Positions 2,270-37,697 of a DNA stretch of 41,248 nucleotides are shown piece after piece. Source of the stretch: an uncultured Ruminococcus sp. (lineage in GTDB: Bacteria; Bacillota; Clostridia; Oscillospirales; CAG-272). The translations under genes were made by a program, and so were the position numbers. The stretch covers positions 1 to 41,248 of the forward strand of contig CADBQA010000145.1 in NCBI GenBank assembly GCA_902796675.1, read 5' to 3'. Under the pieces are notes generated by a model. It did not search any database. It was given only the letters and a program-made list of their open reading frames with translations, and was not told where the DNA came from. Positions within the stretch are counted from its first letter, which is position 1. Each line of letters begins with the position of its first letter.

Positions 2270-2307
2270 TTCACTTTAAGTTTTAGCTTATTTTCTTTCG
2301 ATAAATA

Positions 2308-2390: not shown

Positions 2391-2435
2391 GGATCCTGCG
2401 ACGGATTCTTATTTTTGAAAACAAGTATACATATA

Positions 2436-2450
2436 CGGTCAAATTGACCG
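2436..2450. promoter_or_regulatory. Perfect 7-1-7 palindrome CGGTCAA-a-TTGACCG just upstream of gene 2; candidate operator or small hairpin
   Basis: Read directly from the sequence. It ends 13 nt before the TTG start at 2464 and abuts the AGAGGA ribosome-binding site. Confidence 0.25.
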
Positions 2451-2463
2451 AGAGGACGGGAAA

Positions 2464-3453
2464 TTGGAAGCAAGCAAAAAAAGACGGCGCAGGACGTTTT
2501 TGTACCTCTGGATCCTGCTCGGACTGCTCGTACTTCTCGTCGCCGCAACTTACACCTGGTTTTCACTTTCGCAAACTCCTCACGTCAACGACATGGCGAT
2601 GTACGTAAACGCGGAGTCGGGCCTTGAGCTCGCTCTCGAGTACGACGCGCCGGATGACGAGTGGGGGCAGAAGATCGATTTTCTCGATATGGTGGACGAC
2701 GACTATCCGCTGAAACCGGCGACGTGGTCGGACGCAAGACAGAGCTTCGCAGCCATCCGTTACGGGCTCGACGGCAGACTCACCGACGAGATAGTCCCGC
2801 TGACGGACGGTATGAACGCAAACAGACGCGACGCCTACGGGTACTACGTAACGGGCGCGTTTTACGCGAGGACGCTGATGCCATGCACCGTGTCGCTCGC
2901 CGAGGCGGTAGAGCTTAACGAAGGTGAAAACGGAGCCGGTACATACGTCATCGGCACGCCTCTTTGGGACGACGAGGAGCTCGTTCACACGGACGGCGGC
3001 AGCGGCGCGGAGTGCGCGGTGAGGATAGGGCTCAGGATCACGCCTGTTGACAAAGACGGGGCGGCGAAGGGCGACACGGAATTCTTCATATACGAGCCGA
3101 ACTGCGACGTTCATATCGAGGACGCCGAGGGATACGTCGACACCCCGAACGTCGACGGGGGCGACACTCTTACGGACCGCGATCATATGATCCTTCAGGA
3201 GGCGTCGACCTGGACCGAGGCGTATCCTGTCAGACACGACGTTACTATAAAAGACCTCGGAAAATTCATTGAAAACAGGACTCTTTTCTCGCTCGAGAGG
3301 GGCGAAATCGTTAAAATAGAGCTTTACGTCTGGCTTGAGGGTCAGGACGTGGACTGCACGAACAGGATCGAGGACGCAAAGATCATGGCGAATCTTCAGT
3401 TCCACACGGACTACAGCGGACAGACGGGGCTCGACATTATACCGAACGATTAA
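2464..3453 (+). CDS. Secreted protein with SipW-cognate signal region (TasA/camelysin-like paralog 2)
   Basis: TTG start 7 nt after AGAGGA. An n-region KKRRRR and a hydrophobic core are followed by ATYTWFSLS. The C-terminal YVWLEGQDVDC...ANLQF block and a FIYEPN block are shared with ORF 8136. Confidence 0.8.
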   Translation: MEASKKRRRRTFLYLWILLGLLVLLVAATYTWFSLSQTPHVNDMAMYVNAESGLELALEYDAPDDEWGQKIDFLDMVDDDYPLKPATWSDARQSFAAIRYGLDGRLTDEIVPLTDGMNANRRDAYGYYVTGAFYARTLMPCTVSLAEAVELNEGENGAGTYVIGTPLWDDEELVHTDGGSGAECAVRIGLRITPVDKDGAAKGDTEFFIYEPNCDVHIEDAEGYVDTPNVDGGDTLTDRDHMILQEASTWTEAYPVRHDVTIKDLGKFIENRTLFSLERGEIVKIELYVWLEGQDVDCTNRIEDAKIMANLQFHTDYSGQTGLDIIPND

Positions 3454-3503
3454 CGGATAGGATCCGTTTTATATGGAAAGCAATAATTGAAGGGAGTAAT
3501 TCC

Positions 3504-4556
3504 ATGAAAAAGAAAAACGCCAGCGTCACTGTCAATGAAGAAGCGACAGCTCCTGAAAAGAAGGAGAAGAAGGGCAGAAAGATAGCGAATATTATCATAA
3601 ACGTTATCCTTGTCATCGCCATCATTATTGCGGCGCTCAGTACTTACATCTCGTTTGTAAGTTCGTCAGGCAACGGTGTGCCGAGCATTTTCGGAATTGA
3701 AATGCTCTCGATACAGACCGATTCAATGGTGCCGACGATAAATCCCGGCGACCTTATCATCGACAAGGAAGTCAAGGACGCGTCGGAGCTCCACACGGGC
3801 GATATCATCACTTATTGGACTGTCATCGACGGCGAGCGCGTGCTCAACACGCACAGAATCGTTGAGATCTACGACGGCGGTAATTATCTTATCTTTGCCA
3901 CGAAGGGTGATAACAACAACACGGAGGACCCGCTGACCGTTCATGAGTCCGAGATCGTCGGCGTATACAGCAGATACAACGCCGAAACGGGTGAGGATGA
4001 AGGCGCGACGAAAATAAAGGGTCTCGGCAAGGTATTCGATTTTCTGCAGACAAGCACGGGATTCCTTCTCGTGGTCGTACTCCCTGTCGCTCTGTTCTTC
4101 CTGTATCACCTCATACAGTTCTTCCGCGTGCTCTTTGAGTATCAGTCCGTTAAGAACAGACTCCGCTTTGAGCAGGAACGCGAGGATGCGGACCGCGCCG
4201 AGCGCGAGGCTGAAAAAGAGGCTGCGGACGACGGTGAAAAGGCGGCTGAGCGCGAAAAACTCGAAGAAGAGCTTCGCGAAAAGCTGAAGAAAGAACTTAT
4301 CGAGAGCGGCGCTATCCCGGCAGAAAAAGCCGAAGAGCAGGCGGCTCCCGAAGAAGCGCCCGCGGAACCCGAAAAAGCGGCACCCACGGAAGAGGAGATC
4401 CGCGCCGAGATAGAGGCGAAGATACGCGCCGAATACGAGGCGAAACTCGCCGCCGCAAAGCAGGACGCCGAGAAGGCGGAAGACGCGGCGGAAAAAACGG
4501 TCGAAGAAGCAACGGACGCCGTATCCGCTGACGCCGAAGAGAAAAAAGAAGATTGA
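3504..4556 (+). CDS. Signal peptidase I, ER/archaeal S26B type (SipW-like), with a long C-terminal Glu/Lys/Ala-rich tail
   Basis: AAGGGAG ribosome-binding site and an N-terminal TM helix. The catalytic Ser lies in TDSMVPT (codon 3723-3725), a His in NTHRIV, and there is a TKGDNN box; together these match the Ser/His SipW-type signature. A second TM (GFLLVVVLPVALFFLY) is followed by a charged tail of about 140 aa. Confidence 0.85.
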   Translation: MKKKNASVTVNEEATAPEKKEKKGRKIANIIINVILVIAIIIAALSTYISFVSSSGNGVPSIFGIEMLSIQTDSMVPTINPGDLIIDKEVKDASELHTGDIITYWTVIDGERVLNTHRIVEIYDGGNYLIFATKGDNNNTEDPLTVHESEIVGVYSRYNAETGEDEGATKIKGLGKVFDFLQTSTGFLLVVVLPVALFFLYHLIQFFRVLFEYQSVKNRLRFEQEREDADRAEREAEKEAADDGEKAAEREKLEEELREKLKKELIESGAIPAEKAEEQAAPEEAPAEPEKAAPTEEEIRAEIEAKIRAEYEAKLAAAKQDAEKAEDAAEKTVEEATDAVSADAEEKKED

Positions 4557-4602
4557 TCCTCTTAAATTAATCACGCCGCGTGCGGCGCTGACGAGGTAGA
4601 TA

Positions 4603-6180
4603 ATGGACCACTTTTTACATTACCTGTTCATGGATCTGGGACGTCTTGTCAAGTCCTTCATCCAGATATTCATATCCTTCTTTGATTTCGTACTGAACCT
4701 GTTCAACTTCAAGGAGCGCTATGAGATCATAAAGAATACGACGAGCGATTTTACGGTCTTCGAGTGGATAATGCTCGTAATAACCGAGATCATATTAGTC
4801 GCTCTCGCGGTATTTCTCCTTTACCTTCTCTTCAAGCTTTTGAAGAAGATCTTCCGTTTCCGCGTTTCCGTAAAGAAATACGACGAGCTCGCAAAGCAGG
4901 TCAAGATCCTGCAGCGCGACCTTCTCCGTGCAAACTATGAGAAGGACCGCCTGCTCCAGATGAAGGCGGCGGAGCTCGGCATTTCCGAGGATGCGCTTAA
5001 GGGAGAAGAGCCCGAAGAAGAGGAAAAGGGAGAGGGCGAGGACTTCGTTCCGCTTCAGAACCGCAACACGATGGAGTCACCTCTTGTCGACCCCGAGGAG
5101 AGCCGTTTCTTCAGACTCACTTCCGTAGACAACTATTACAAGACGGAGTATAAGGCGCCGACGTACGACGATTCGCTCACTCTGCCGGACATTTGCGACA
5201 GGTTCAGAAGATATACCGCTTATTATCTGAAGCTTTATTACGATATCGACATGATGCGCTACTTCATCGCCTCGATGGGTACCGCGCGCATTATCATCCT
5301 TCAGGGTATATCGGGTACCGGTAAAACGTCGCTTCCTTATGCGTTCGGCAAGTTCGTCGGAGTCGACACGACAGTCGTTTCCGTACAGCCGTCCTGGCGT
5401 GAGAGGACCGAGCTTTACGGTTACTACAACGAGTTTACGAGAAAGTATATGGAGACGGACTTCCTTCGCGCCATTTACGAAGCGAACTTTTACCGTGATC
5501 CTCACATCATCATTCTCGACGAGATGAACATCGCGCGCGTTGAGTACTACTTCGCCGAGATGCTCTCCATCCTCGAGCTTCCCCGCAAAGAGGAATGGAA
5601 GGTCGACATCGTAACGGCGATGTGGGAGAACGACCCCGTTCTCATAGAAAACGGCACCGTTCCGATAAGCGACAACATCTGGTTCGTCGGCACCATCAAC
5701 AACGACGACTCGACGTTCGCCGTCGCGGATAAGGTTTACGACCGTGCGATACCGATCGACCTTGACAGCCGCGCCGATCCGTTCGAGTGCGAGCCCGCGG
5801 AGCAGATCACGATCTCAACAGAGCATCTCAACGCTCTGTTCGATCAGGCGAAGCGCGATTATCCTCTCTCGGAAGAGATGATCGACAAGCTCGAAAATAT
5901 GAATATGTATCTTATAAAGAACTTCCGTCTTGCATTCGGTAACCGTATTATGAAGCAGGTAAAGGATTTCGTTCCCTGCTTCGTCGCATGCGGCGGCACC
6001 GAGCTTGAAGCGGTAGACTTTATAATCGCAAAGAAAGTTCTCCGTAAATTCGAGTCTCTCAGCCTCGGATTTATGAAGGACGAGCTCACGAAGTTCAGCG
6101 CGTATCTCGACCGCACGTTCGGCAAGAACAAGATGGTCACGTGTAAGGACTACGTAGAGCTTCTCAAGAAGAACAACTGA
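4603..6180 (+). CDS. Membrane-anchored McrB-family AAA+ (AAA_5) GTPase-like protein lacking a DNA-binding N-domain
   Basis: Walker A GISGTGKT (5305-5328) and Walker B IIILDEMN (Asp-Glu at 5518-5523). DEMNIARVEYYFAEMLSILE and GTINNDDSTFAVADKVYDRA resemble the McrB-family DE(I/M)NRA and (M)NTADRS blocks as I recall them, and the NxxD is retained (5698-5709). The N-terminus has a strongly hydrophobic helix (WIMLVITEIILVALAVFLLYLLF) and a charged coiled-coil-like linker. Confidence 0.8.
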   Translation: MDHFLHYLFMDLGRLVKSFIQIFISFFDFVLNLFNFKERYEIIKNTTSDFTVFEWIMLVITEIILVALAVFLLYLLFKLLKKIFRFRVSVKKYDELAKQVKILQRDLLRANYEKDRLLQMKAAELGISEDALKGEEPEEEEKGEGEDFVPLQNRNTMESPLVDPEESRFFRLTSVDNYYKTEYKAPTYDDSLTLPDICDRFRRYTAYYLKLYYDIDMMRYFIASMGTARIIILQGISGTGKTSLPYAFGKFVGVDTTVVSVQPSWRERTELYGYYNEFTRKYMETDFLRAIYEANFYRDPHIIILDEMNIARVEYYFAEMLSILELPRKEEWKVDIVTAMWENDPVLIENGTVPISDNIWFVGTINNDDSTFAVADKVYDRAIPIDLDSRADPFECEPAEQITISTEHLNALFDQAKRDYPLSEEMIDKLENMNMYLIKNFRLAFGNRIMKQVKDFVPCFVACGGTELEAVDFIIAKKVLRKFESLSLGFMKDELTKFSAYLDRTFGKNKMVTCKDYVELLKKNN

Positions 6181-6269
6181 CATAAACGGGCGACGTCGCG
6201 CCGCGGGACTACGGTCCGGCGGCGTGCGGCGTGACGTCACGGTATGGATTCGTACGGAGGTGTAACGGT

Positions 6270-8111
6270 ATGGCGGAAATAGAAAGGATCCGTTCGGGCG
6301 ACGAGGACAAGTCGCTGATCGACCCTATATATAAAAAGTTCGTCAAGGGAACTCTTCGCGCCATAGGAAGCACCGAGTTTTATGAGTTCTTTATGGACGC
6401 GCTCTCCAAGGCGGACAATGAGTTCCAGTTCTCGAACAGAAAGCTCGAGAAGGTCGTGGATCTGGTGTGGGTCGATACGATAAACGGCGCTCTCGGCGCT
6501 TTTCAGAACATCGTCGGCAACCCGAGAAACGTCATCAAAGAGGAAGAACTCATCGTCAGCATCGCAAACGCGAAGAAGGCGGGACCGGAGACCGTACGTC
6601 ACCTTGCGCAGCACGCGGCGCTCGTCGACGAATATCATGAAGAGACCGGCGATATCCGTCCCGGCAGGCTTATGCAGAGATACCGCGAGGACACGATAGG
6701 CATTTATGAAAACCGTCTCGTCTTCACGGCGATGGAATACGCATACAGATTCGTAAAGATCCGTCACGACGCTCTTTTTGAAGCGATGAGCGACGAGTTC
6801 GGCGCGAAGCTGAAGGTGCGCTCGGATATGGACAGCGCGACGGAACACGTTCATATGGATATGTTCCTGCACATCAAAGAGGTCGACTCCGCGCTTGAAA
6901 CCGACGACAAAAACTCACAGGTGTTCGCTACGATATCGAGGATGTACCGCATTCTCGGCTCGTTTATGAACACCGGATTCGCGCAGCAGTTATCCCAGCT
7001 TCCGCGCATAAAGGGCAAGATCAACATCACGAACGTTCTTAAAAAGAACAAAGATTACCACAAGATACTGGAGCTTTTCAACTTCTTAAAGAATTACGAC
7101 CAGATAGGTTATACTATCAAGGTAACGGAGCAGAATCCGGAGATCAACGAACAGTTCCAGCGCGATATTTACCACAACATACTTTTCAATTACCTTATCC
7201 TCAAGGGTTATCTCGAGAGCGAGGAGGACCGCAAGGTCCCGACGGCTTCAAAGACTCAGCGCAAGATGCTGAAGCCGAAGTTCATCCACGAGATCATCGA
7301 GGAGATAACAGAGGATTACGACCTTCCCGACGTCGAGGTCCGCAAGGTCCTCATCGAGGAGCTCACGAAGGCTCAGCTTATGCAGGAGGAGCGCGAGGAG
7401 CGCCGCCGCCTCGTAGAGGAGCAGGAGCAGAGAAGAAGAGAAGAAAAAGAGCGCGAGCGCGCAGAAAAAGCCGCGGAGCGCGAGAGAATAAAGCAGGAGA
7501 AGGCGGCGGAACGCGAACGTATCCGCCAGGAAAAGGCTGCCGAGCAGGAACGCCTTATGATCGAGCGCACCGAGCGCGAGATAGAGGACAGACGGCGCAG
7601 CATGCTTCTGCGTGAAGAGATCAAACGCTTTACGGACAACCTCGAAGAACAGCTCTTCCGCCGCAGCGATATGGAAAAGGAAAAGGCGGAGGGACTTCTC
7701 GATTACGCGGACGCCGCGGAGATACTTGAGGACGTCGAGAAATTCCAGAAAGAAGAAGCGGACAGAGCGCGTCAGAGAAGACGCGAAGAGCGCGAGAGAC
7801 TCCGCCGCGAGGCGCAGATAGCCGAGCAGAAGGCGAAGGAAGAAGCGGAGCGCGCGCGTATTGCAAAAATAGAAGAAGAAAACAGGTTACGTCACGAACA
7901 GGAGGAGCGGGAGCGCGTGGAATACGAGGCTCTCGTTGCGCACGACAAAGAAGCGCTCGCACCTCTGGAGGCGGAAATAACCGTGTTCTCCGCAGCCCTT
8001 GCCGGGCAGCTTGAGCGCCGCCGTGTACAGGCTGAAAAGGCGAGAGCCGCCGAGGCCGCGCGCGAAGAACGCCGCCGCCTCCGTCAGGCTCAAAAGGTGG
8101 ACGTAAGATAA
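6270..8111 (+). CDS. McrC N-terminal-like (DUF2357-like) protein without recognisable nuclease, fused to a ~240-aa Glu/Arg/Lys-rich helix
   Basis: GGAGG sits 9 nt upstream of the ATG at 6270; the track ORF begins at an upstream GTG at 6231. TIGIYENRLVFTAMEYAY (YENRL at 6705-6719) resembles the T-x-ENR(F/L)(V/L) block of McrC/DUF2357 N-domains. No D...(D/E)xK (DAKY-type) nuclease block was found by eye. From about 7380 onward the sequence is almost pure E/R/K/A/Q, with tandem EKAAERERI(K/R)Q units. Confidence 0.65.
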   Translation: MAEIERIRSGDEDKSLIDPIYKKFVKGTLRAIGSTEFYEFFMDALSKADNEFQFSNRKLEKVVDLVWVDTINGALGAFQNIVGNPRNVIKEEELIVSIANAKKAGPETVRHLAQHAALVDEYHEETGDIRPGRLMQRYREDTIGIYENRLVFTAMEYAYRFVKIRHDALFEAMSDEFGAKLKVRSDMDSATEHVHMDMFLHIKEVDSALETDDKNSQVFATISRMYRILGSFMNTGFAQQLSQLPRIKGKINITNVLKKNKDYHKILELFNFLKNYDQIGYTIKVTEQNPEINEQFQRDIYHNILFNYLILKGYLESEEDRKVPTASKTQRKMLKPKFIHEIIEEITEDYDLPDVEVRKVLIEELTKAQLMQEEREERRRLVEEQEQRRREEKERERAEKAAERERIKQEKAAERERIRQEKAAEQERLMIERTEREIEDRRRSMLLREEIKRFTDNLEEQLFRRSDMEKEKAEGLLDYADAAEILEDVEKFQKEEADRARQRRREERERLRREAQIAEQKAKEEAERARIAKIEEENRLRHEQEERERVEYEALVAHDKEALAPLEAEITVFSAALAGQLERRRVQAEKARAAEAAREERRRLRQAQKVDVR

Positions 8112-8135
8112 TTTTCAAACGGGAGGTGAGCGCCG

Positions 8136-9446
8136 ATGCGGTCAATGAAGAAAATGTCAGCGAAACTTTTCGCCGCCGTCATGACGCTCATCATCGCCAT
8201 TGTGATCGCCGTTTCCGTGACTTACGCGTGGATGACGCTTTCCACAAGTCCGTCGGTAAGCGGAGCGACGATAAAGATCGGGGGAGGTACTAACATCCTC
8301 CTCGCGCCCGACGTGACAAAGACCATGGACGGCGTTACCGTCCATTATCCCGGCGCGTTCACGGATACCCTCACGTTCGATTCGGAAGCGTACGCGTATC
8401 TTTCCGACCTCGCCGGACTTACTCCCGTATCGACTGCCGACGGCGTCAACTGGTTTTTTCCGAAGTATGACGCTGCGACGGGCGAAATAAAGGATTTCGC
8501 TCTGTTTGACGTCGACGACACGCTCTCAAAGGCGAACGTCACGGGAAACCGTTCCGGCGGTTACGTTTACATCGACTTCTGGGCGGTCGCGCCCGGGTCC
8601 GATTACAAGCTTCGCGTTTCGACCGATACCAAGGCGACGAGAGGCTCGGCGGACAGCGAGTTTTACGACGGCTCGTCACTTCTTGAGATACCTTCCGTGG
8701 TTTCAAACGGCGAGGGCGGATGGCGTCTCGGCGAGACGAAGGGAAATATTGACACGGTCGCCCGCGTGGGATTTCTCGTAAATTCGGGAAGCGCCGAGGC
8801 AAAATCGGTAACCGGATACGTATACAGCGCGGACTACGACGCGAGATTCAAAAAGCTCGTCGGCAGATATCAGGAGCCGGGCGACGCCGCGGCTGTAAAC
8901 GCCGACAATAAGTTTACGATATACGAGCCCAACGGCACGAGACATACAGACGGCGAGCAGGGATGCTACCGCGTTACGAATCCCATCGGATACGACGCTC
9001 TCGGCAATGCTTCTCCGTCAGACGTTTCAGACCGTCTCACCGTTCAGAGCGCAAGCGGATGGAAGCGCGGCGCGGGAGAGGGCAGAATGATAGACGAGGT
9101 GTTCTCCGGCGTCGCCGGTGAAAAGACGGAAGACGAAGCGCGCGAAACGCTTAAGGCTTTCATTGAATCGGAATCGATCAACTATATTCAGACCGGCGTC
9201 TTCTTCCGAAGCACAGAGACTCTCATAAACAACGCGGGAGACGACGGATATCTCCCGGCGGCGGAGGTCGAAAATCTCCTGACGTCGGGTGCAACGGACG
9301 ATGTGTATATAACCGAGCTTGAAAAGAACGCGCCGCAAAGGATAAGGATGTTTATCTGGCTCGAGGGTCAGGATGCCGACTGTGTGGCGTCCGGCGCGGG
9401 AGCGACTTATTTCGCGCTTAATCTTGAGCTTGCCGGGGCAAATTGA
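8136..9446 (+). CDS. Secreted protein with SipW-cognate signal region (TasA/camelysin-like paralog 3)
   Basis: GGGAGGTG ribosome-binding site 7 nt upstream. A hydrophobic core is followed by VTYAWMTLS. FTIYEPN and the C-terminal FIWLEGQDADC...LNLEL are shared with ORF 2464. Confidence 0.8.
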   Translation: MRSMKKMSAKLFAAVMTLIIAIVIAVSVTYAWMTLSTSPSVSGATIKIGGGTNILLAPDVTKTMDGVTVHYPGAFTDTLTFDSEAYAYLSDLAGLTPVSTADGVNWFFPKYDAATGEIKDFALFDVDDTLSKANVTGNRSGGYVYIDFWAVAPGSDYKLRVSTDTKATRGSADSEFYDGSSLLEIPSVVSNGEGGWRLGETKGNIDTVARVGFLVNSGSAEAKSVTGYVYSADYDARFKKLVGRYQEPGDAAAVNADNKFTIYEPNGTRHTDGEQGCYRVTNPIGYDALGNASPSDVSDRLTVQSASGWKRGAGEGRMIDEVFSGVAGEKTEDEARETLKAFIESESINYIQTGVFFRSTETLINNAGDDGYLPAAEVENLLTSGATDDVYITELEKNAPQRIRMFIWLEGQDADCVASGAGATYFALNLELAGAN

Positions 9447-20103: not shown

Positions 20104-21406
20104 ATTTTACAACGCAGATATATTCTATCCCGTAGTATTTGAACGCTTCGATCTTTTCGCGGTCTATCGCCTCACCCGATACGGCGATCGGTATCGCCGG
20201 CGGGCACGAGACGGAGGGCGACGCCATGACGCGCCCGTCCGCTTCGTCGACCGGTATTACTTCACGCGGCGCGAAGAACGCCTCGCGGGGCGTCATAACG
20301 GCTTCGAGCGGCGACGGGACAGGCGGCGGTGAGTTTATCGCCTCGAGGCGGGGAAGCGCTCTCAGCGCACTCTCAAGGCGCGAGAAGTCCTCTTCCGTGT
20401 TCTCGGGCGAGAACATAAGCGTCACGAGGTCCGGGTCGTGAAACTCGGGGTGGATCTTCTTTGATATCAGGTATTCGGCGACCGCGTCGCCGACGTAGCC
20501 GTAAGGCTTCGTCTTTACCGTCAGCTTCGCGCTCTCGTCGCCGACGAAGATAAATCCGAGGGATGAAAGGCTCTCTTTCAGCGCCTCGACCCTCTCCGAG
20601 AGCGCGGCGTATTTTTCGAAAAACGAGTCGGCGTCACCGTTTATAAGGTCGAGCGAGCGAAGGATCGGGTATGACGGGCTCGTCGTGCCGAAGACCTCCA
20701 TCGTCTCCTTGACGAACGGCGCAAATTCTTTCGCGGCTCCGGCGGAAAGGTGGAGATAGGCGGCGCCCGTCAGCGCGGGAAGCGTCTTGTGCGCCGAGTC
20801 GGCGCACATATCCGCGCCGAGGTCTATCGGGTGGCGCGAGGGTGTGAGAAACTTAAGATACGCGCCATGCGCGTTGTCGACGAGAAGGAGAGTTCCACGC
20901 TCGTGACAGACTCTTGCGATCGGTGCGACGTCGAGCATATTGCCGACGTAGTCGGGGGTCGTGACGTAGACGAAGGCTGCCGGCTCGCCATTCGCGTCGA
21001 GCGTCGTCGCCACGTCGTCAGCCGTCACGGGACAGGAGAGATACGACGCGCCGCGCGGCGTCAGCCACTCGACGTCGAGGTCGAGAAGTATCGCGGCGGA
21101 GAGAAAAGAGACGTGCGCGTTTCGCGCCGCGATAACTCTTTTATTGCCGCCGCGGACGGCGAGAGCCGCCATCGTCTTTATCGCGAGAGACGAACCCTCG
21201 GTCGAATAGTAGGTCGGAAAACCGAAGACCTGTGACGCTGTGCGCTCGCTCTCGGCGACGATGCCGCCGCCCGGGAAGAGGCTTCCCGCGCCGTCGATCT
21301 CCGTTATGTCAAATTTGTACGAGCCTCGGTGTCCCGGCATATGGAAACGGGACGCGCCCGATTTTTCGTAGTTTTCTATGAAGTCCGAAATAGGCGTCGG
21401 ATTCAT
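20102..21406 (-). CDS. PLP-dependent Orn/Lys/Arg decarboxylase-family enzyme
   Basis: The true start is MNPTPISDF (ATG at 21406-21404), in an ATGA overlap with the scfB stop. Motifs HMPGHRG and DSAHKTLP (PLP lysine) are present. The 684-aa track ORF is an artefactual upstream extension. Confidence 0.8.
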   Translation of the reverse strand: MNPTPISDFIENYEKSGASRFHMPGHRGSYKFDITEIDGAGSLFPGGGIVAESERTASQVFGFPTYYSTEGSSLAIKTMAALAVRGGNKRVIAARNAHVSFLSAAILLDLDVEWLTPRGASYLSCPVTADDVATTLDANGEPAAFVYVTTPDYVGNMLDVAPIARVCHERGTLLLVDNAHGAYLKFLTPSRHPIDLGADMCADSAHKTLPALTGAAYLHLSAGAAKEFAPFVKETMEVFGTTSPSYPILRSLDLINGDADSFFEKYAALSERVEALKESLSSLGFIFVGDESAKLTVKTKPYGYVGDAVAEYLISKKIHPEFHDPDLVTLMFSPENTEEDFSRLESALRALPRLEAINSPPPVPSPLEAVMTPREAFFAPREVIPVDEADGRVMASPSVSCPPAIPIAVSGEAIDREKIEAFKYYGIEYICVVK

Positions 21407-22776
21407 ACTTCCTCCTCGCGGGCGACTTCCGCCATTATCGCACATTCCATGCGCTTTTTGAAAAGCTCGCACCCGTATTTGTAAACCCCTCTGACGGAGC
21501 CCGTCGCGTGATAAGCGTTCGCGGCGCATCCGCCCGAGCAGTAGAGCCTCGCCCAGCAGTCGCGGCATTCCTCTCTCGCGTAGACGTTGCAGGAGGCGAA
21601 CTCGTTCTGTATCTCGTGATTTGTGACGCCGTGCCACACGTCGCCGAGACGGAATTTTTCCTCGCCGACGAACTGATGGCAGGGGTAGAGGTCGCCCCAC
21701 GGGGTCACAGCCATATATTCGGTACCGGAGCCGCAGCCCGAGATCCTCTTGTAGACGCAAGGACCGCCCTTCAGGTCTATCATGTAGTGGTAGAAGGTGA
21801 ACGGCTTTCCCTCGCGGCGACGCTTTATGAGAAGGCTTGCCAGCTTTTCGTACTGCTCGAATATTATCGGCATATCCTCTTTTGTCAGCGCGTACGGGTC
21901 GCCCTCGGCGCAGACGACGGGCTCCATCGAGAGCTCCGTGAAGCCGAGGTCGAGCATCGTTTCGATGTCCTTCAGAAAGTCGGGGTTGAGGTGGGTGAAC
22001 GTGCCTCTCATGTAGTAGTTCCTGCCGCCTCTCGCCTCGACGAGACGCTTGAATTTCGGGACTATCCTGTCGTAGCTGCCGCGCCCCGCGTAGTCGACGC
22101 GGAACCTGTCGTGTACCTCGCGCCGTCCGTCGAGACTCAGCACGACGTTGGAGCACTCGCGGTTCGCAAAGTCGATCACGTCGTCGTCGATCAGCATCCC
22201 GTTCGTCGTGAGAGTGAAGCGGAAGTTCTTGCCCGCCTCTTTTTCAACGCTCCGCGCGTAGGCGACGAGACGCTTCACGACGTCGAAGTTCATAAGGGGC
22301 TCTCCGCCGAAAAAGTCGACCTCGAGGTTTCGCCTCGTGCCGGAGTTCTTCACGAGAAAATCGAGCGCGGCGCGCCCCGTCTCAAAGCTCATAAGAGCGC
22401 GCTCGCCGTGAAATTTTCCCTGGCTCGCAAAGCAGTATTCGCAGTTGAGGTTGCAGGTGTGCGCGACGTGGAGGCAGAGCGCCTTGATGACGCCCGACGT
22501 CCTCGCTTTAAGTTCCCCCGCCATGGGAGCGAACGTGTCCGGCGCGAAGAGCTTTCCCTCGTTTTTAAGTTCGGTTATCTCGTCGTAGCACTCGTGGACT
22601 TCTTCCTTCGTCGCGACGTCTTTGTATTTTTCGTATATTTTTTCGGTAACTTCCTCTTTGGAGCCTCCCTCGTAGAGAGAGATCATATCGTACGCCGCGT
22701 CGTCCACCGCGTGAACGGAGCCGGACGCAACGTCGAGCACGATATTCATACCGCCGAGCTTGTACTGATGGATCAT
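21403..22776 (-). CDS. scfB: Radical SAM/SPASM thioether-forming SCIFF peptide maturase
   Basis: Starts MIHQYKLGGMNIVLDV. Radical SAM CNLNCEYC (CxxxCxxC) and C-terminal SPASM cysteine clusters (CGSG...PCHQF and CRDCWARLYCSGGC). Lies immediately downstream of the SCIFF precursor gene. Confidence 0.9.
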   Translation of the reverse strand: MIHQYKLGGMNIVLDVASGSVHAVDDAAYDMISLYEGGSKEEVTEKIYEKYKDVATKEEVHECYDEITELKNEGKLFAPDTFAPMAGELKARTSGVIKALCLHVAHTCNLNCEYCFASQGKFHGERALMSFETGRAALDFLVKNSGTRRNLEVDFFGGEPLMNFDVVKRLVAYARSVEKEAGKNFRFTLTTNGMLIDDDVIDFANRECSNVVLSLDGRREVHDRFRVDYAGRGSYDRIVPKFKRLVEARGGRNYYMRGTFTHLNPDFLKDIETMLDLGFTELSMEPVVCAEGDPYALTKEDMPIIFEQYEKLASLLIKRRREGKPFTFYHYMIDLKGGPCVYKRISGCGSGTEYMAVTPWGDLYPCHQFVGEEKFRLGDVWHGVTNHEIQNEFASCNVYAREECRDCWARLYCSGGCAANAYHATGSVRGVYKYGCELFKKRMECAIMAEVAREEEV

Positions 22777-22835
22777 AACTTGTTCCTCACAGAAATAATG
22801 CCGCCATAGCGGCGGCATTCAAAGAATTTTTATGC

Positions 22836-22991
22836 TTATTTGGATTCTTTCTTTCCGTTCTCGCACTTCTGGTTTGCGATGCCGCAGCTCGTCTTGCAAG
22901 CAGACTGGCAGGAGGTCTGGCATTCGCCGCATCCGCCGTTCTTCGCGCTCTCGCAAAGGTTGCGTGTTTCAATGGTCTTAATATGCTTCAT
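22836..22991 (-). CDS. scfA: SCIFF (six-cysteines-in-forty-five) ranthipeptide precursor
   Basis: 51-aa peptide MKHIKTIETRNLCESAKNGGCGECQTSCQSACKTSCGIANQKCENGKKESK carrying the hallmark GGCGECQTSCQSACKTSC core. GGAGGG ribosome-binding site. The track ORF is extended by 14 codons at its N-terminus. Confidence 0.9.
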   Translation of the reverse strand: MKHIKTIETRNLCESAKNGGCGECQTSCQSACKTSCGIANQKCENGKKESK

Positions 22992-23023
22992 AAGAGTTCC
23001 CTCCGTAGTTTTATTACTATTAT

Positions 23024-23052
23024 AGTATAGCAAATATGACTTGCGTTGTCAA
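23024..23052 (-). promoter_or_regulatory. Sigma-A-type promoter of the scfA-scfB-decarboxylase operon
   Basis: On the minus strand: TTGACA (23052-23047), a 17-nt spacer, then TATACT (23029-23024). Confidence 0.65.
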
Positions 23053-25476: not shown

Positions 25477-25501
25477 ACGGCTCTTCAGTTTGAAGAGCCG
25501 T
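25477..25501. terminator. Hairpin ACGGCTCTTCA-GTT-TGAAGAGCCGT, copy 1 of a 25-bp direct repeat
   Basis: 11-bp stem. On the minus strand it is followed by TAATATTTTTAAG, so it could terminate minus-strand transcripts. The identical 25-mer recurs at 25758-25782. Confidence 0.5.
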
Positions 25502-25757
25502 CAGAGCGAAGACAAACTTGGTAGAGCAGCAATGACAGGCAAAAAGGTGAGGCAAGCATAACATCATAAGATGATAACGCTTCACCGAAAATCAAAGAGG
25601 ATGTGGGCTACGGGATAAACCCGTAGCCCACATCCGTCATTGCTTTTCGGCGCTCTCGCCGCTCGACGTATTCATATACGCCTGTCGCGGCGAGATCACC
25701 AAATCTACCTGCGTTTCTCTCACTCTGACTCAGCCTGAAGACTTTGTCTTCAGCCTG
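25502..25757 (+). repeat. Structured intergenic element, copy A (candidate ncRNA or MITE-like repeat)
   Basis: Colinear with the reverse complement of 33621-33860. Shared blocks are GAGCGAAGAC, GCAATGAC...GTCATTGC (a long-range 8-bp helix), a 24-nt loop TCGACGTATTCATATACGCCTGTC closed by a 9-bp stem, and CTGAAGA-N5-TCTTCAG. The direction of transcription is unresolved. Confidence 0.6.
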
Positions 25758-25782
25758 ACGGCTCTTCAGTTTGAAGAGCCGT
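25758..25782. repeat. Hairpin ACGGCTCTTCA-GTT-TGAAGAGCCGT, copy 2 of the 25-bp direct repeat
   Basis: Identical to 25477-25501, including loop orientation. It overlaps the last codons and the stop (25766-25768) of the helicase gene. Confidence 0.6.
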
Positions 25783-28156
25783 TAATGTTCCAGAACTTTT
25801 TAAGGTTCGCCGAAAGCGATCTCGCGTCGCCGACGACGTGGACGTTTTTCCAATGAGAGGGAAGGAGCTTCATTATAGACGGGTCGCGGTATCTGTCGTC
25901 TATCAGCACGACGACGCCGCGGTCACTCTCGTCTCTTATGACTCTGCCCGCCGCCTGGGAGATCTTTATCAGCGCGGGGTAGAGGTAGGCGAACTCAAAG
26001 CCGCCCTCCCTCGTCCTGTCGTAATACTCTTTCAAAATGTTCAGCTTCGACGAGAGGGAAGGAAGACCGATGCCGACGAGGATCGCGCCGATGAGTCTGT
26101 CGTCGGGCAGGTCGATACCTTCCGAGAATATCCCGCCGAGAACGCAGAAGCCGACGAGGGTGTCGCCCTCGTTTTTCTCGAAGAACGACAGAAATTTACG
26201 CCTTGCGTCGAGCGACATCGACGGTTTCTGAACGAGCGCCGAAAAACCCTTCGGCGCTATTGTTTTGAACGCCGAAAAAACGGTGTCAAGGTATTTGTAA
26301 GACGGAAAATAGACTATATAGTGACCGGGCTTTGCCGACGTCGCGGCGACGATCGCCTCGGCGACTTCATACGCGGTGTCGCCGCGTGAGAGGAACTTCG
26401 TGGAAATGCCGTCCACAACCGTGACGGAAAGGTTTTCGGGTGAGTAGGGCGACTCGAGCTCGAGCGTCGCGGCGCCGCGGCACCCCGTGACGTCAAGAAA
26501 ATAGTCCGTCGGCGAGAGCGTGGCGGAAAAGAGGATCGTCGACACGGCGCCGGAGAATACGGCGTCGAGGATCGCCGAAGGGTCGAGGCAGATAACGGAC
26601 GCCGAAAGGCTGTCGCCGTTCATCTCCGCGAAGAATGTGAAATGCTCGTCGAAGAGCTCCGACGCCGTAATAAAGTCAGACGCGGCGCCGGACGCCTCGT
26701 CGGCGAGCGCCGAGACCGCGGCGTCTTCGTCACGCTTCGCTTTTGAGGCGGCGCGGGAGAAAGCGGCGACGGCTTTCACGAGTTTTTCGGGTACGCGGTC
26801 GTCGACGATATATCCCGTCCTCTCGTTTCCGACGACCTCCGCGTCCTCTGAGCATTTGGCGGCGACGGCGTCGAGAGCCTCCGTCATCTTCCCGCAGGCG
26901 GCGATAAGGTCGGCGTCGGGCGAAGCGGAGTCCTTCGCCGTCCGGGCGAGCTTTGCAACGTCAATATTTGAGACAGTTGCCGAAAAAGTTTCTCTCGTGC
27001 GGTCGGGCAGGTTGTGAGCCTCGTCGACGAGAAACGCGTATTTTATCTCGCCCTCGACGAAGTATCTTCTGAATCTGACCCTCGGGTCCGTCGCGTAGTT
27101 GTAGTCGCAGATGACGACCTGACAGTATTCCGAAAGGTCGAGAGAGAGCTCGTAAGGGCAGACGGAGTACTTTTCGGCGGCTTCATAAATCTCCGCCTTT
27201 CCGTAGATACCTCCGCTCCCGAGGAGCTCTTCAAGGGCGGCGTTTCGCCTTGCGGTGTAGTCGCCGTGCTCGCTCCACGAAAGGCGCGGGCAGTCGGGCG
27301 AACAGCGCTCGACGAAAAATTCGTTCTTTTTGTCGTTGGAGGGGCAGATGCGCTCCTTCGCCGAGATCATCACGGCGCGAATGTCCGGCGCGAAGTTCCT
27401 CATGACTTCGACCGCCTTTGCCGCGGCGCGGCCCGTGACCGTCTTCGCGGTCAGATAAAAGACCTTTTCAATGGCGCCGTCGCCTATCGCCTTGACGGCG
27501 GGAAAGAGCGCGGAGACTGTCTTGCCGATACCGGTCGGCGCCGAGACCAGCAGCCTCGATTTTCTCTTAATCGCCCGGTACGCTTCCTTTATGAAATCCT
27601 CCTGCCCCTCGCGGATCGTCTTGTAGGGGAAGGGCATTTTTTTAATATCACTTTTTCCGCGAATGTCGAAATCCTTTTCTACAATCGCAAAAAACGCGGC
27701 TCTCGAGAGGAGGTCGTCGCACGCCGCTTTAGCTGTTTCGGCGTCGATGAAGATATCGAAATTCTTTTCTCCGTTCTCGCCCGAAACCGTCACTTTCAGC
27801 GTAACGCGCGGAATATCCAACTCTCGGCAGACGAGGTGAGCGACGACGTAGCACCTCGCGAGAAACGCGGGGTCGGAATACGGCGTTACGGAGGACGTCA
27901 CTTTTTTGACGCTTTTCTTCATCCAAACCGCCGTCTCGCCGGAGAAGGTGAATATGCCGTCCGGACGGCCTCTTACGATAAATATTTCGCCGCGGAGAAC
28001 CGTTTCGTATGAAAAGTCGCGCGGCGCCGCCTCGTCTCCGTAAGGGGAAACGGACGGCTTGAACGAAACGGATCCCGCTCTGACGCGGCTTTTCGCGAAT
28101 GACGAGAGCGTCTCGGGCGTGAGTACTATCGCGCCGTCTTCAAGCTTGATTTTCAT
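25766..28156 (-). CDS. XPD/Rad3/DinG-family Fe-S DNA helicase with ~190-aa N-terminal extension
   Basis: Probable start at MKIKLEDG (ATG 28156-28154) after AGGAGG. Walker A SAPTGIGKT and DEAH box LVDEAHNL. Cys residues are placed for a 4Fe-4S cluster (RICPSN, ERCSPDCPR, SVCPYE). The C-terminal helicase domain carries QAAGRVIR. Confidence 0.8.
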   Translation of the reverse strand: MKIKLEDGAIVLTPETLSSFAKSRVRAGSVSFKPSVSPYGDEAAPRDFSYETVLRGEIFIVRGRPDGIFTFSGETAVWMKKSVKKVTSSVTPYSDPAFLARCYVVAHLVCRELDIPRVTLKVTVSGENGEKNFDIFIDAETAKAACDDLLSRAAFFAIVEKDFDIRGKSDIKKMPFPYKTIREGQEDFIKEAYRAIKRKSRLLVSAPTGIGKTVSALFPAVKAIGDGAIEKVFYLTAKTVTGRAAAKAVEVMRNFAPDIRAVMISAKERICPSNDKKNEFFVERCSPDCPRLSWSEHGDYTARRNAALEELLGSGGIYGKAEIYEAAEKYSVCPYELSLDLSEYCQVVICDYNYATDPRVRFRRYFVEGEIKYAFLVDEAHNLPDRTRETFSATVSNIDVAKLARTAKDSASPDADLIAACGKMTEALDAVAAKCSEDAEVVGNERTGYIVDDRVPEKLVKAVAAFSRAASKAKRDEDAAVSALADEASGAASDFITASELFDEHFTFFAEMNGDSLSASVICLDPSAILDAVFSGAVSTILFSATLSPTDYFLDVTGCRGAATLELESPYSPENLSVTVVDGISTKFLSRGDTAYEVAEAIVAATSAKPGHYIVYFPSYKYLDTVFSAFKTIAPKGFSALVQKPSMSLDARRKFLSFFEKNEGDTLVGFCVLGGIFSEGIDLPDDRLIGAILVGIGLPSLSSKLNILKEYYDRTREGGFEFAYLYPALIKISQAAGRVIRDESDRGVVVLIDDRYRDPSIMKLLPSHWKNVHVVGDARSLSANLKKFWNINGSSN

Positions 28157-28277
28157 TTTTCCCCTCCTTTCGACGATTTTTCGGGTTAAACATTGTCTCT
28201 TTGTTGACATAAAATAAAAAACGGTGGTATACTATAATAAATTAAGCGCGAAGTCAGCGCGCACAATCGGAGTAATT

Positions 28278-28910: not shown

Positions 28911-29011
28911 TTCACCAAAAATCCGGCGCGGCATAATATGATATCAGAGCGTCTCGTTTCGCTCTGAAATCAAATGAAAGGACCGCGTCGGCTCTGCCGA
29001 TGCAAAGTAAA

Positions 29012-29140
29012 ATGAACTGTCTTTGCAACCTTTTTGACAACGAGATAGTCTGGCTCATCATCATCGCCCTTCTCGTTCTGAACGCAACCTGCAACGGCTT
29101 CGGTGGCAACCGCTCCTACGGCTGCGGCTGCAACGGCTAA
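29012..29140 (+). CDS. 42-aa Cys/Gly/Asn-rich single-TM micro-protein (not in the supplied ORF track)
   Basis: Translation is MNCLCNLFDNEIVWLIIIALLVLNATCNGFGGNRSYGCGCNG, with stop TAA at 29138-29140. An in-frame alternative ATG lies at 29000. A strong terminator follows. It resembles the tiny Cys/Gly-rich membrane peptides common in Clostridia. The ribosome-binding site is weak. Confidence 0.45.
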   Translation: MNCLCNLFDNEIVWLIIIALLVLNATCNGFGGNRSYGCGCNG

Positions 29141-29159
29141 TTAATAGCACATAGTCTGC

Positions 29160-29191
29160 GGCGCAAATCGTAAGATTTGCGCCGTTTTTTT
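29160..29191 (+). terminator. Rho-independent terminator after the micro-ORF
   Basis: GGCGCAAATC-GTAA-GATTTGCGCC followed by G and TTTTTTT. The T-tract overlaps the stop codon of the convergent dnaC-like gene. Confidence 0.7.
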
Positions 29192-33591: not shown

Positions 33592-33620
33592 CGAAAAAAG
33601 CGGCACGCTTTGGCGTGCCG
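33592..33620 (-). terminator. Rho-independent terminator at the 3' side (minus strand) of repeat element copy B
   Basis: On the minus strand: CGGCACGC-CAAA-GCGTGCCG followed by CTTTTTTCG. Confidence 0.7.
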
Positions 33621-33860
33621 ACCATCCTGAAGACTTTGTCTTCAGGATGGGGAGAGTGAAGACGCGCAGGTGGATTCGTCGCTTTGCCCCCGACAGGCGT
33701 ATACGAATACGTCGAGGGGGCAAAACGGCGAAAGGCAATGACGGCGGATGCAACGCATCCGCCTCATTTCCTTTTGGTGTACTTTTTTTTTTATGATTTA
33801 GTACGAACATGATTCAAATTTTCCTGTGTCATTGCCGTTCCGGCAAGCTCGTCTTCGCTC
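33621..33860 (-). repeat. Structured intergenic element, copy B (candidate ncRNA or MITE-like repeat)
   Basis: Read on the minus strand it is colinear with copy A (25502-25757, plus strand). The 24-nt loop matches at 23 of 24 positions (33692-33715). Its 9-bp closing stem TTTGCCCCC/GGGGGCAAA differs from the copy A stem at 4 pairs, all compensatory. It is bounded by two minus-strand terminators. Confidence 0.6.
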
Positions 33861-33888
33861 AAAAGCGGCAGGTCGTTCGACCTGCCGC
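33857..33888 (-). terminator. Rho-independent terminator of the pyrR-pyrP operon
   Basis: On the minus strand: GCGGCAGGTC-GAAC-GACCTGCCGC followed by TTTTGAG. Confidence 0.65.
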
Positions 33889-36148: not shown

Positions 36149-37687
36149 ATGGGCAAAACGAAAATGTTTTTGATGAACGCGCTTCTTCTCTCCGGGGTCA
36201 GCGCGGCGATACGTTTCGTCTCCGTCAGCTTCAACGCTCACGTCGCGCGAAAGGTCGGCGAGGAGTGTATGGGGCTCTTTACCCTCGTCGCGAGCGTATT
36301 CTCGCTCTCGGTCATAATAGCGTCCGCCGGCGCGAACCTCGCCGTTGTGAGGTGCGTCTCGGAAGCCGTCGCGAGATGCGAAAAGGAGGGCGTCGCCCCC
36401 GGAGCAAGACTGAAAAAGATAGTCCGCTCGGCGACACTTTACAGCCTTCTCTTCGGCGTGTCGACGGGGCTTGCGGTCTTCGCCTCGTCCGGATTCATCG
36501 CACGCGAGCTTCTCGGCGACGAAAGATGCCTTCTGTCCCTTCGCGCTTTCGCCGTCAGCCTTCCCGCGATCTCGCTCTCGTCCGCGCTCTCGGGGTATTT
36601 CACCGGTGTCGGCAAGATATACAAGAACGCCGTCTGCACCGTGACCGAGGAGGCGGCGAAGATACTCGTCGTATCGGCGGGGCTCGTTTTTATCGCGCCG
36701 CGAGGGATAGAGTACGCCTGCCTTGCGATAGTCGGCGGCGGCGCCGCGGCGCAGGCGGTATCCCTCGCCGTTTCCTTCTTTTTATATATTACGGACAAAA
36801 AACGCAAGGGCGGGACGTCAGGCGGCTTCGGGGTAAAGAATATCGCCTCGCTCGCGCTCCCCGTCGCGGTCGGCAGCGCCGCGAGAAACGGGCTTATCAC
36901 CGCCGAGCACCTCGCGATACCGAGAGGGCTTAAAAGCTTCGGTCTTACGAACTCCGAGGCGCTCGCCGTCTACGGTGTTTTCTCCGGTATGGTGATGCCC
37001 GTCGTTATGTTCCCGTCCGTCGTTCTCTATTCCTTCGCGGGGCTTCTCGTGCCGGAGCTTGCCGGATGCCGCGCCGTCGGCGACAGACGGCGGATCGCCC
37101 GAATAGAAGAGAAGGTCTTCCGCTCGTCGCTCCTCTTTTCGATCTGCGTCGCGGGCATCCTGATCTCCTTCTCCGACCCGCTCTGCGCAAGGCTCTACGG
37201 CAGCGCCGAAGCCGCCCGGCAAATGAGGCTTATATCCGTTCTTATCCCCATAATGTATCTCGACTCCGCCGTCGACGGAATGTTAAAAGGCCTCGGCGAG
37301 GAGGTCTACTGCATGAGGGTGAACGTCGTCGACTCGCTCCTGTGCCTCGTCCTCGTCTTCATCCTCGTGCCGTCGTACGGGATAGACGGCTTCATTATGC
37401 TGACGATAATCAGCGAGGTCGTGAACGCCGCGCTCAGCGTTATGCGGCTTCTGAAGATCGCGCCGCTCAAGACGGACCTTTTACGGTGGATGGTTTTCCC
37501 CGTGGCGTCGATATGTGCCGCGACCTTCGGCGTAAAGCTGATATCAGACTTCGCTCCGTTACATATATATCTCAAGATCGCCCTCGCCGTCGCCGCGTAC
37601 GGCGCGCTCTGCTTCCTTTCCGGCGCCGTAAACCCTACCGACGCCTCGTGGGCGAAGAACCTTATAAAAAAGCGGCAGGAGGCGTGA
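36149..37687 (+). CDS. MOP-superfamily oligosaccharide/lipid II flippase (SpoVB/MurJ-like)
   Basis: About 14 TM helices. The N-terminus FLMNALLLSGVSAAIRFVSVSFNAHVARKVG is typical of SpoVB-type polysaccharide biosynthesis proteins. Confidence 0.7.
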   Translation: MGKTKMFLMNALLLSGVSAAIRFVSVSFNAHVARKVGEECMGLFTLVASVFSLSVIIASAGANLAVVRCVSEAVARCEKEGVAPGARLKKIVRSATLYSLLFGVSTGLAVFASSGFIARELLGDERCLLSLRAFAVSLPAISLSSALSGYFTGVGKIYKNAVCTVTEEAAKILVVSAGLVFIAPRGIEYACLAIVGGGAAAQAVSLAVSFFLYITDKKRKGGTSGGFGVKNIASLALPVAVGSAARNGLITAEHLAIPRGLKSFGLTNSEALAVYGVFSGMVMPVVMFPSVVLYSFAGLLVPELAGCRAVGDRRRIARIEEKVFRSSLLFSICVAGILISFSDPLCARLYGSAEAARQMRLISVLIPIMYLDSAVDGMLKGLGEEVYCMRVNVVDSLLCLVLVFILVPSYGIDGFIMLTIISEVVNAALSVMRLLKIAPLKTDLLRWMVFPVASICAATFGVKLISDFAPLHIYLKIALAVAAYGALCFLSGAVNPTDASWAKNLIKKRQEA

Positions 37688-37697
37688 CCTCCTGCCG
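37665..37697. terminator. Hairpin between convergent genes (spans the flippase stop codon); terminator mainly for the minus-strand prsA-like gene
   Basis: CGGCAGGAGG-CGTGA-CCTCCTGCCG (37673-37697), preceded by AAAAAA on the plus strand, which reads as a U-tract on the minus strand. Confidence 0.55.

Follow-up and report, generated by a model that had tools for sequence, protein, structure and literature searches.

What kind of sequence lies in two inverted copies between the genes of a 41,248-nucleotide contig from an uncultured Ruminococcus sp. (CADBQA010000145.1; hereafter, in its whole length, the window): the gene of a new functional RNA, or a piece of DNA that moves? The two copies, A (25502-25757) and B (33621-33860), had been described in a first-pass annotation, which took their combination of conserved single-stranded sequence and covarying helices as the hallmark of a functional RNA, or of a DNA element recognised through its structure. 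The evidence presented here points to mobility. The element is probably a non-autonomous transposable element of the MITE (miniature inverted-repeat transposable element) type, non-coding and 240-272 bp long, which inserts at the terminator hairpins of genes and duplicates them. It represents a new, still active MITE-like family within a wider set of rod-like repeats of gut Clostridia, and it is a variant of known selfish DNA and not a new RNA gene.

The likeness between the two copies is as had been reported. Positions 25502-25757 on the plus strand and 33621-33860 on the minus strand are colinear, with 79% column identity in a pairwise alignment, and an inverted-repeat search returned the pairs 25634-25718/33660-33744 (85 nt, 78%) and 25504-25550/33814-33860. 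All eight blocks listed in the annotation can be read in both copies, including an A/T-rich segment of 62 nt in copy A and 64 nt in copy B, a variable hairpin of 16 bp and 9 bp, respectively, and a 24-nt loop that matches at 23 of its 24 positions and is closed by a 9-bp stem in which four pairs differ between the copies, every one of them with compensation. Block 2 of copy B (GCAATGAC) is indeed present, but it lies at 33835-33828 and not at 33742-33735, where it had been placed; the latter interval is block 5 of that copy (GTCATTGC), which reads GCAATGAC on the plus strand. A 20-nt motif taken from the loop occurs twice in the window with up to three mismatches allowed, where 0.01 occurrences would be expected by chance, and the folding of copies A and B stands out from that of shuffled sequences (z = -10.6 and -9.4). 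Not recorded at the time were a 25-bp direct repeat around copy A, the inverted-repeat nature of the element's ends and the better fold of the complementary strand.

The direct repeat around copy A (ACGGCTCTTCAGTTTGAAGAGCCGT, 25477-25501 and 25758-25782) is exact over its 25 bp and is itself a perfect hairpin. Copy A proper extends from CAGAGCGAAGACAAA to TTTGTCTTCAGCCTG, its ends being inverted repeats of each other (inverted pair I2, 85% identical over 47 nt if the flanking hairpin is included), and the same arrangement is reproduced in an independent assembly, L046. The ends of the element read 5'-CAG...CTG-3' within imperfect terminal inverted repeats of 15 nt, and its length varies between 240 and 272 bp. 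Both ends of the loci L016 and L029 match the pattern CAGNNNGAAGACAAA; L010 matches it on the left and departs from it by one mismatch on the right, and copy A carries it at the left end only, its right end being an imperfect inverted repeat. In the 27-nt palindrome at the right end of the element the end motif occurs twice, once facing inward and once facing outward. The parts of the two copies and their target sites in the window are as follows, the strands of the copies being those of the first-pass annotation.

25477-25501, no strand: left target duplication of copy A, a terminator hairpin, ACGGCTCTTCA-GTT-TGAAGAGCCGT; exact 25-nt repeat of 25758-25782.
25502-25757, plus strand: copy A, long form, 256 nt; the minus strand folds better (-138 versus -116 kcal/mol).
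25502-25516, plus strand: left terminal inverted repeat of copy A, CAGAGCGAAGACAAA, in inverted pair I2.
25529-25536, plus strand: 5' strand of helix P1, GCAATGAC, pairing with 25636-25643; invariant in all six long copies.
25599-25635, minus strand: hypervariable 16-bp hairpin, with TCTTTGATTTT next on the minus strand; scores as an intrinsic terminator.
25636-25643, plus strand: 3' strand of helix P1, GTCATTGC.
25654-25695, no strand: core, consisting of the 9-bp helix P2 (TCTCGCCGC/GCGGCGAGA) and, enclosed by it, the conserved apical hairpin GACGTAT-TCAT-ATACGCC.
25731-25757, plus strand: terminal 27-nt palindrome, CAGCCTGAAGAC-TTT-GTCTTCAGCCTG, the arms of which covary between copies.
25743-25757, plus strand: right terminal inverted repeat of copy A, the outer arm of the terminal palindrome.
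25758-25782, no strand: right target duplication of copy A, a terminator hairpin that overlaps the DinG-like helicase gene (25766-28210, minus strand) at its stop codon.
29158-29185, no strand: empty target site with one terminator hairpin, GCGGCGCAAATC-GTAA-GATTTGCGCCGT, followed by T7; filled in the conspecific contig L036.
33596-33620, minus strand: downstream, diverged copy of the permease terminator, CGGCACGC-CAAA-GCGTGCCG-CTTTT, with compensatory stem changes.
33621-33860, minus strand: copy B, long form, 240 nt; the plus strand folds better.
33861-33887, minus strand: upstream copy of the same, duplicated permease terminator, CGGCAGGTC-GAAC-GACCTGCCG-CTTTT; a single orthologous hairpin in the relatives L041 and L044.
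37673-37697, no strand: empty target site, a single terminator hairpin between a rotamase gene and a polysaccharide-synthesis gene.

Insertion is supported by four comparisons of filled with empty loci, for which orthologous sites in relatives were recovered by using the neighbouring proteins as handles. At the site of copy A, between the genes for a CotH-dockerin protein and the helicase, the related species L037 and L038 (helicases 69% identical to that of the window) have no element and a single orthologous hairpin between the same convergent genes (AACGGCAGGTC...GACTTGCCGTT and AACGGCAAGC...GCTTGCCGTT), in spacers of 27 nt and 18 nt, respectively. Conversely, in L036 (Logan SRR33322340; helicase 98% identical) there is a third copy, similar to B, which lies between the DnaI-like gene and a small Cys-rich open reading frame (ORF) and is flanked on both sides by (G)CGGCGCAAATCGTAAGATTTGCGCCGT, a hairpin duplication of 27-28 bp, whereas the window has the hairpin once, with its T-tract, at 29158-29185. 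This is a clean presence/absence polymorphism within the species. The left hairpin copy in L036 has lost the T-tract, and read-through into the element is therefore to be expected there. The site of copy B, between the permease and dCMP deaminase genes, is filled in a strain of 97% identity and empty in relatives at 88-90% identity (L041 and L044), where a single terminator stands, CGGCAG.CC...GG.CTGCCGCTTTT; copy B has a different hairpin on each side (33861-33887 and 33596-33620), and both are diverged copies of that terminator. Finally, in L044, which comes from a related species, the 3' part of an element adjoins the hairpin orthologous to 37673-37697, where the window has the hairpin only. 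The syntenic 41 kb thus contains two copies in the window and two further sites that are filled in relatives.

In L036 an A-type element is also seen at the same CotH/helicase terminator in the opposite orientation (L036:6395-6431 versus window 25728-25782, ...CCAAGTTTGTCTTCGCTCTG|CGGCTCTTCAGTTTGAAGAGCCG). The contig ends 37 nt into that element, and the junction is one A short of what a simple flip would give. The arrangement came about either by inversion in situ across the palindromic flanks or by another insertion, independent of the first.

Target duplications flank all five long-form copies for which both flanks are known, namely the two in the window, the one in L036 and those at two unrelated loci, where the local terminator hairpin is duplicated over 25 bp (AAAAATCCCGCGCGGCAGCGCGGGA, L010) and 20 bp (AAACCGGCTTGCGCCGGTTT, L029); a sixth long-form copy, that of L044, has a terminator hairpin at its one visible end. 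The duplications measure 20, 25, 25, about 27 and 27-28 bp, their length following the size of the hairpin, and the duplicated hairpins have a common shape with no common sequence.

Does the element encode anything, and what could move it? The only ORF of at least 60 aa at the element overlaps copy B and not copy A, and no reading frame conserved between the copies was found when their full-length sequences were compared by eye. A peptide gene on the complementary strand was considered, there being a 21-codon frame through the loop in A and B, and rejected, as this frame is broken in other family members and the stem changes alter its residues. No transposase domain was detected in the 20 proteins of the window. 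Among 68 ORFs around 25 family loci, the 25 commonest of 92 Pfam families are diverse housekeeping ones, a count in which a single transposase could be missed. A parent insertion sequence (IS) with the same ends was found neither in the window, nor among those commonest families near the 25 loci, nor in viral contigs. We regard the element as non-autonomous because it has no transposase near it and no conserved reading frame. Its discrete ends, terminal inverted repeats, hairpin duplications and empty sites, together with this want of a nearby transposase and the covariation described below, are direct observations, and a size below about 300 bp, no coding capacity and dispersed copies are features that it shares with MITEs.

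Relatives of the element were gathered by scanning public genomes and metagenomes for the loop motif, which gave about 30 true loci, all in metagenome-assembled genomes (MAGs) of uncultured gut or rumen Clostridia or in metagenomes. Long forms like those of the window were found at L010, L016 and L029, and partial copies at L017 and L024. Most loci, however, are short forms of ~100 nt, rod-like imperfect hairpins that combine other arm sequences with the same apical stem-loop and usually start at the stop codon of the upstream gene; units in general tend to abut the stop codons of housekeeping genes. At some loci (L004, L007 and L021/L026) diverged short-form units form tandem arrays; from unit to unit of such an array the apical hairpin changes, with compensation (CGTAT/ATACG, CTGTAT/ATACAG, CGTATA/TATGCG), while the arms stay conserved. 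The invariance of the apical motif in our sample is partly a matter of ascertainment, since the loci were retrieved with that motif. BLAST of copy A against plasmid and phage collections gave no match, and scans of viral contigs yielded one chance match to the loop motif and none to the left end.

Some further features of these repeats deserve mention. The tandem arrays, with units of 90-150 nt, directly follow housekeeping stop codons, e.g. that of a FakA/DAK2-family gene (L021:1-280, L026:2200-2460, L004:4220-4438, L007:715-970). Beside the short forms, the MAG RGIG2083 has a second related repeat type with a variant apical motif, GCCGTATTTCATATACGGCGG then CAGAAAATTACGACGATTCTCGCTCCGAATAC, located as follows.

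L003:5890-5990, L006:280-400 and L015:700-780: second related repeat type.

Beyond the 3' end of the short form, GGGTGTAATGTTTRATATTATAS.GCGGTAG.TTTGCGG is conserved between copies (L005:1990-2110, L003:5590-5700), with TATAAT on the better-folding strand; the short-form unit may accordingly be longer than mapped and may carry a -10-like box.

The structural part of the original interpretation has held up. A consensus of six full-length copies comprises 78 pairs, 25 of which show double-sided changes, arranged in a terminal hairpin, a long closing helix (P0), the invariant P1 (GCAAUGAC/GUCAUUGC), P2 with its apical hairpin, and the hypervariable hairpin, which has a different sequence in every copy, with compensation. 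For the core, 16 family members could be compared: 92% of the cells pair and 10 of the 20 pairs change on both sides, a covariation score that none of 500 shuffles reached and that register-shifted controls did not approach (0.05-0.11 versus 0.39). The third copy, in L036, provides an example, having the apical stem CGTAG/CTACG in place of CGTAT/ATACG. The annotation had also failed to match the element to any RNA family, and a search of Rfam with the window and both copies bears it out: the sole match in the window at gathering score is a tRNA, and around both copies the matches up to E = 10 amount to scattered noise from miRNA and snoRNA models, which score 10-22 bits where the cut-offs are 37-135. 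What does not stand is the idea of a stand-alone RNA gene. The annotation had itself named many copies with terminal inverted repeats and target duplications as the mark of a simple MITE, and this is what we find, with filled and empty sites in relatives besides; a novel functional RNA is for that reason only partly supported. Its alternative suggestion, a DNA element recognised through its structure, is viable and close to the best explanation.

The fold is not symmetric with respect to strand. With RNA parameters the complementary strand, i.e. the one opposite to that of the annotation, folds better in 20 of 21 core units, by 9 kcal/mol on average, and in five of the six full-length copies; with DNA parameters it does so in all 21 core units, and the consensus energies are -93.9 kcal/mol for the complementary strand versus -75.1 kcal/mol. 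On that strand the apical hairpin has a 7-bp stem with an invariant G.U pair, which appears as an invariant A.C mismatch on the other, although among pairs predicted on both strands the excess of G.U is small (6 versus 3). The asymmetry is moderate evidence. Mutation bias was considered as its cause and set aside by inference only, as it would be expected to produce C-to-T changes on the coding or leading strand, the opposite direction. In both window copies the hypervariable hairpin, if read on the better-folding strand, has the score of an intrinsic terminator, and a T-rich tract comes next in all six copies. A scan of both strands of copies A and B found no promoter-like site inside; a promoter in the A/T-rich segment was likewise rejected, hand inspection adding weak matches only to what the scans had failed to find. 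In about three quarters of the units, by a count that depends on crude ORF calls and in which tandem units are not independent, the annotation's strand is co-oriented with the gene whose stop codon precedes.

How could an element of this kind come to duplicate whole terminators? We propose that a transposase encoded elsewhere would read palindromic terminator hairpins by shape and not by sequence, the target hairpin probably being extruded as a cruciform, or lying in single-stranded DNA, when it is recognised. The element ends would then be joined to the two strands at the hairpin's two feet, and repair of the staggered gap would duplicate the whole hairpin. Attack at the feet followed by gap repair would explain why duplications of 20-28 bp track the size of the hairpin, and since a cruciform would put the two feet side by side, it would also explain why their length is neither fixed nor stepped by helical turns. 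What we infer here is the enzyme type, the step of cruciform extrusion or staggered cutting, and why the element folds. Because the element inserts at terminators, downstream of genes, and a terminator is regenerated on either side of it, insertion would be nearly harmless, and the element could therefore spread through the housekeeping intergenic regions of gut Clostridia; that insertions are polymorphic within a species argues that the family is still active. The compensatory maintenance of the internal helices (P0, P1, P2, the apical and the variable hairpin) implies a need for the element to fold as a single strand, and this fold could serve recognition by the mobilising enzyme or act in a transcript that contains the element.

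Several observations nevertheless weigh against a MITE moved in this manner. With no autonomous partner with the same ends found, the family of the transposase is a guess. The same apical motif sits on elements with widely different arms and ends, which would not be predicted for an element driven by a DDE transposase from its ends; this objection is tempered by the retrieval of the loci through that very motif and by the variation of the apical hairpin between neighbouring units of tandem arrays. The short-form relatives have no obvious target duplication. A transposase acting on a symmetric palindrome would not alone yield an orientation bias of about three quarters, and the folding preference of one strand points to a single-stranded role, as RNA or single-stranded DNA, that double-stranded cut-and-paste does not need. 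It is conceivable, if rather improbable, that a transposition system directed by structure, and as yet undescribed, reads intrinsic-terminator hairpins and pastes elements at their feet, and that the conserved core, far from being passive filler, is its recognition or guide module, in the form of folded RNA or of one DNA strand. If so, the apical hairpin GGCGUAU-ANRA-AUACGUC with its invariant G.U, found on many unrelated arm families, would mark one shared trans-acting enzyme across gut Clostridia.

A possible explanation, which we nonetheless doubt, is that the element carries as its cargo a functional RNA, the core (P2 and the apical hairpin), active in a 3' untranslated region (3'UTR) or in an antisense or insulating transcript, with mobility as its means of spread. 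On the better-folding strand a hairpin and U-tract come after the core, and the element would thus bring along a reverse-facing terminator and a stable structure, which could shield or insulate the neighbouring gene at its 3' end. This explanation, which partly overlaps with that of a MITE, gains from the covariation of the core and of all helices, from the invariant G.U of the apical stem on the very strand that folds better, from the terminator score of the variable hairpin in both window copies with the T-rich tract in six of six, from the location of units next to stop codons of expressed housekeeping genes, and from the read-through expected in L036, where the left hairpin lacks its T-tract. 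However, neither copy A nor copy B has a promoter-like site inside, and read-through would usually yield the wrong strand, the better-folding one being antisense to the adjacent upstream gene; the element has no Rfam relative, the G.U excess of 6 versus 3 is small, and palindromic MITEs fold well as RNA whether the fold is functional or not.

Mobilisation as single-stranded DNA, by an HUH Y1 transposase of the REPIN/RAYT or IS200/IS605 type or by an integron-like tyrosine recombinase acting on a folded strand, would fit the ~100-nt rod-like units with their conserved hairpin motif and covarying stems, the strand-specific folding that holds under DNA parameters in 21 of 21 units, and the conserved mismatch or wobble in the apical stem. 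The units here, moreover, tend to follow directly on the stop codons of ORFs and to have their folding strand in antisense, which is also known of integron attC sites. Yet HUH transposition and attC recombination leave no target duplication, whereas 20-28 bp are duplicated at five long-form copies; the insertion points show no conserved tetranucleotide, R'/R'' boxes or GTAG motif, and no Y1 or integrase gene is found among the 25 commonest of the 92 Pfam families of the flanking ORFs, all of which makes this route very unlikely. That copy A is an invertible switch, flipped by a recombinase at the 47-nt inverted repeats on its borders between two convergent genes, is scarcely credible, even though pair I2 does bracket it (47 nt, 85%) and the 98%-identical L036 has an A-type element reversed at the same site. 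The inverted repeat is accounted for by the palindromic target duplication together with the element's own terminal repeats, no recombinase gene occurs among the 20 window proteins, copy A contains no promoter, the other copies have unrelated flanks, and the L036 junction differs by one base from what a simple flip would produce, an independent insertion being equally possible. A C/D-box or K-turn, group II intron domain V, retron msr/msd, IS110 bridge RNA, TnpB omega RNA, a dif/Xer site and a rolling-circle sso origin, each judged from the sequence, were also rejected, in each case for want of the defining motifs or neighbouring gene or because no target duplication belongs to the system.

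If the element is indeed a terminator-targeting MITE, it would be the first miniature non-autonomous element shown to land on and duplicate terminator hairpins in the style of IS1630, and this in a different phylum-level lineage. Landing at gene ends would provide a nearly harmless safe harbour and would explain how hairpin repeats could become so dense in uncultured rumen and gut Clostridia, whose genomes are compact. Such elements break assemblies, their insertions can serve as strain-level markers within species, and they add or reshape the terminators and 3'UTRs of housekeeping genes; with their covarying helices they could pass for novel structured RNAs in comparative screens. An enzyme that reads the shape of a terminator would, in addition, be of interest for understanding target choice.

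The window is otherwise an ordinary housekeeping region, with genes for the CotH-dockerin protein, the DinG-like helicase, DnaB/DnaI-like proteins, TsaD, RimI, dCMP deaminase, a uracil/xanthine permease and a phosphoribosyltransferase. The small ORF at 28990-29139 (plus strand), whose terminator is the empty target site at 29158-29185, ends in ...NGFGGNRSYGCGCNG*; its product is hydrophobic in the N-terminal half and rich in Cys and Gly in the tail, and the ORF is conserved in L036. A radical-SAM maturase gene adjoins a short ORF region at 21403-23030, and in the syntenic L037:8797-10386 the neighbour is annotated as a SCIFF peptide (PF13165), so that the window probably holds a SCIFF peptide/maturase pair. 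At 11-9446 (plus strand) there is a run of large ORFs (752, 329, 350, 525, 626 and 436 aa) whose sole Pfam match is DUF2357 in the 626-aa protein; it may be an uncharacterised defence or restriction-like cluster. A BbsI site, GAAGAC, falls within the element's end motif (25508-25513 and 25737-25742) and a SapI site, GCTCTTC, within the target hairpin of copy A (25480-25486), which is most likely a coincidence, though it could affect cloning of the region.

How does the element compare with known systems? The Correia, ERIC, BOX and RUP repeats are small, non-coding and multi-copy. They end in terminal inverted repeats, are flanked by target duplications, occur in intergenic regions that are transcribed and form long hairpins, and BOX is also found in modular and tandem arrangements. 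Their duplications, however, measure 2-9 bp (TA for Correia), and they are not known to target terminator hairpins; the core of the present element is branched and not a simple rod, and we know of none among them with its apical motif. REP sequences and REPINs are abundant extragenic hairpin repeats at the 3' ends of genes, rods of roughly 100 nt that are often clustered, but REPINs, which are mobilised by RAYTs, have no target duplication, a GTAG-type motif and a linked Y1 transposase gene. A REP/REPIN or IS200/IS605 origin was rejected because duplications are present, junction sequences differ and no Y1_Tnp occurs among the 25 commonest of the 92 families. Integron attC sites were dismissed as well, as there are no R''/R' boxes (RYYYAAC ... 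GTTRRRY), the hairpin bases being CAG.../...CTG or ATTTTTG.../...CAAAAAT, and the neighbours are housekeeping genes and not cassettes.

Very long duplications are shared with the IS1202 subgroup (27-28 bp for IS1202), whose family is present in Firmicutes. In that family, however, duplication length is fixed per subgroup (5-6, 16-17 or 27-28 bp) and the ends begin with 5'-TGT, and because the duplications here vary between 20 and 28 bp with the hairpin and the ends read CAG...CTG, the element does not belong to it. Group IIC introns have a length of at least 700 nt, contain domains V and VI, usually encode a reverse transcriptase and are not known to make target duplications. Like the present element they go in at terminators, just downstream of the stem-loops (PMC1702495). 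Such an intron was rejected here, since no group II model matches either copy up to E = 10 and target duplications are present.

To our knowledge, the only described parallel for the duplication of a whole terminator is IS1630 of Mycoplasma fermentans, a member of the IS30 family. Its original study reportedly identified the targets as rho-independent terminators of neighbouring genes. Its target duplications are variable, given as 19-26 bp (PMC2853133) or as 16, 23, 25 and 26 bp (PMC3317919). No IS30-type gene that would link the two systems was found among the 20 window proteins or the commonest families near the 25 loci. IS1630 is an autonomous IS of 1.4 kb with its own transposase, 27-bp inverted repeats and a Mollicute host, whereas the present element is non-coding, measures 240-272 bp, resides in gut Clostridia and has 15-nt inverted repeats, a structured core and a terminal palindrome. 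What the two have in common is that entire palindromes are duplicated, that the duplications are long and variable (here 20-28 bp), and that the targets are alike in shape and not in sequence.

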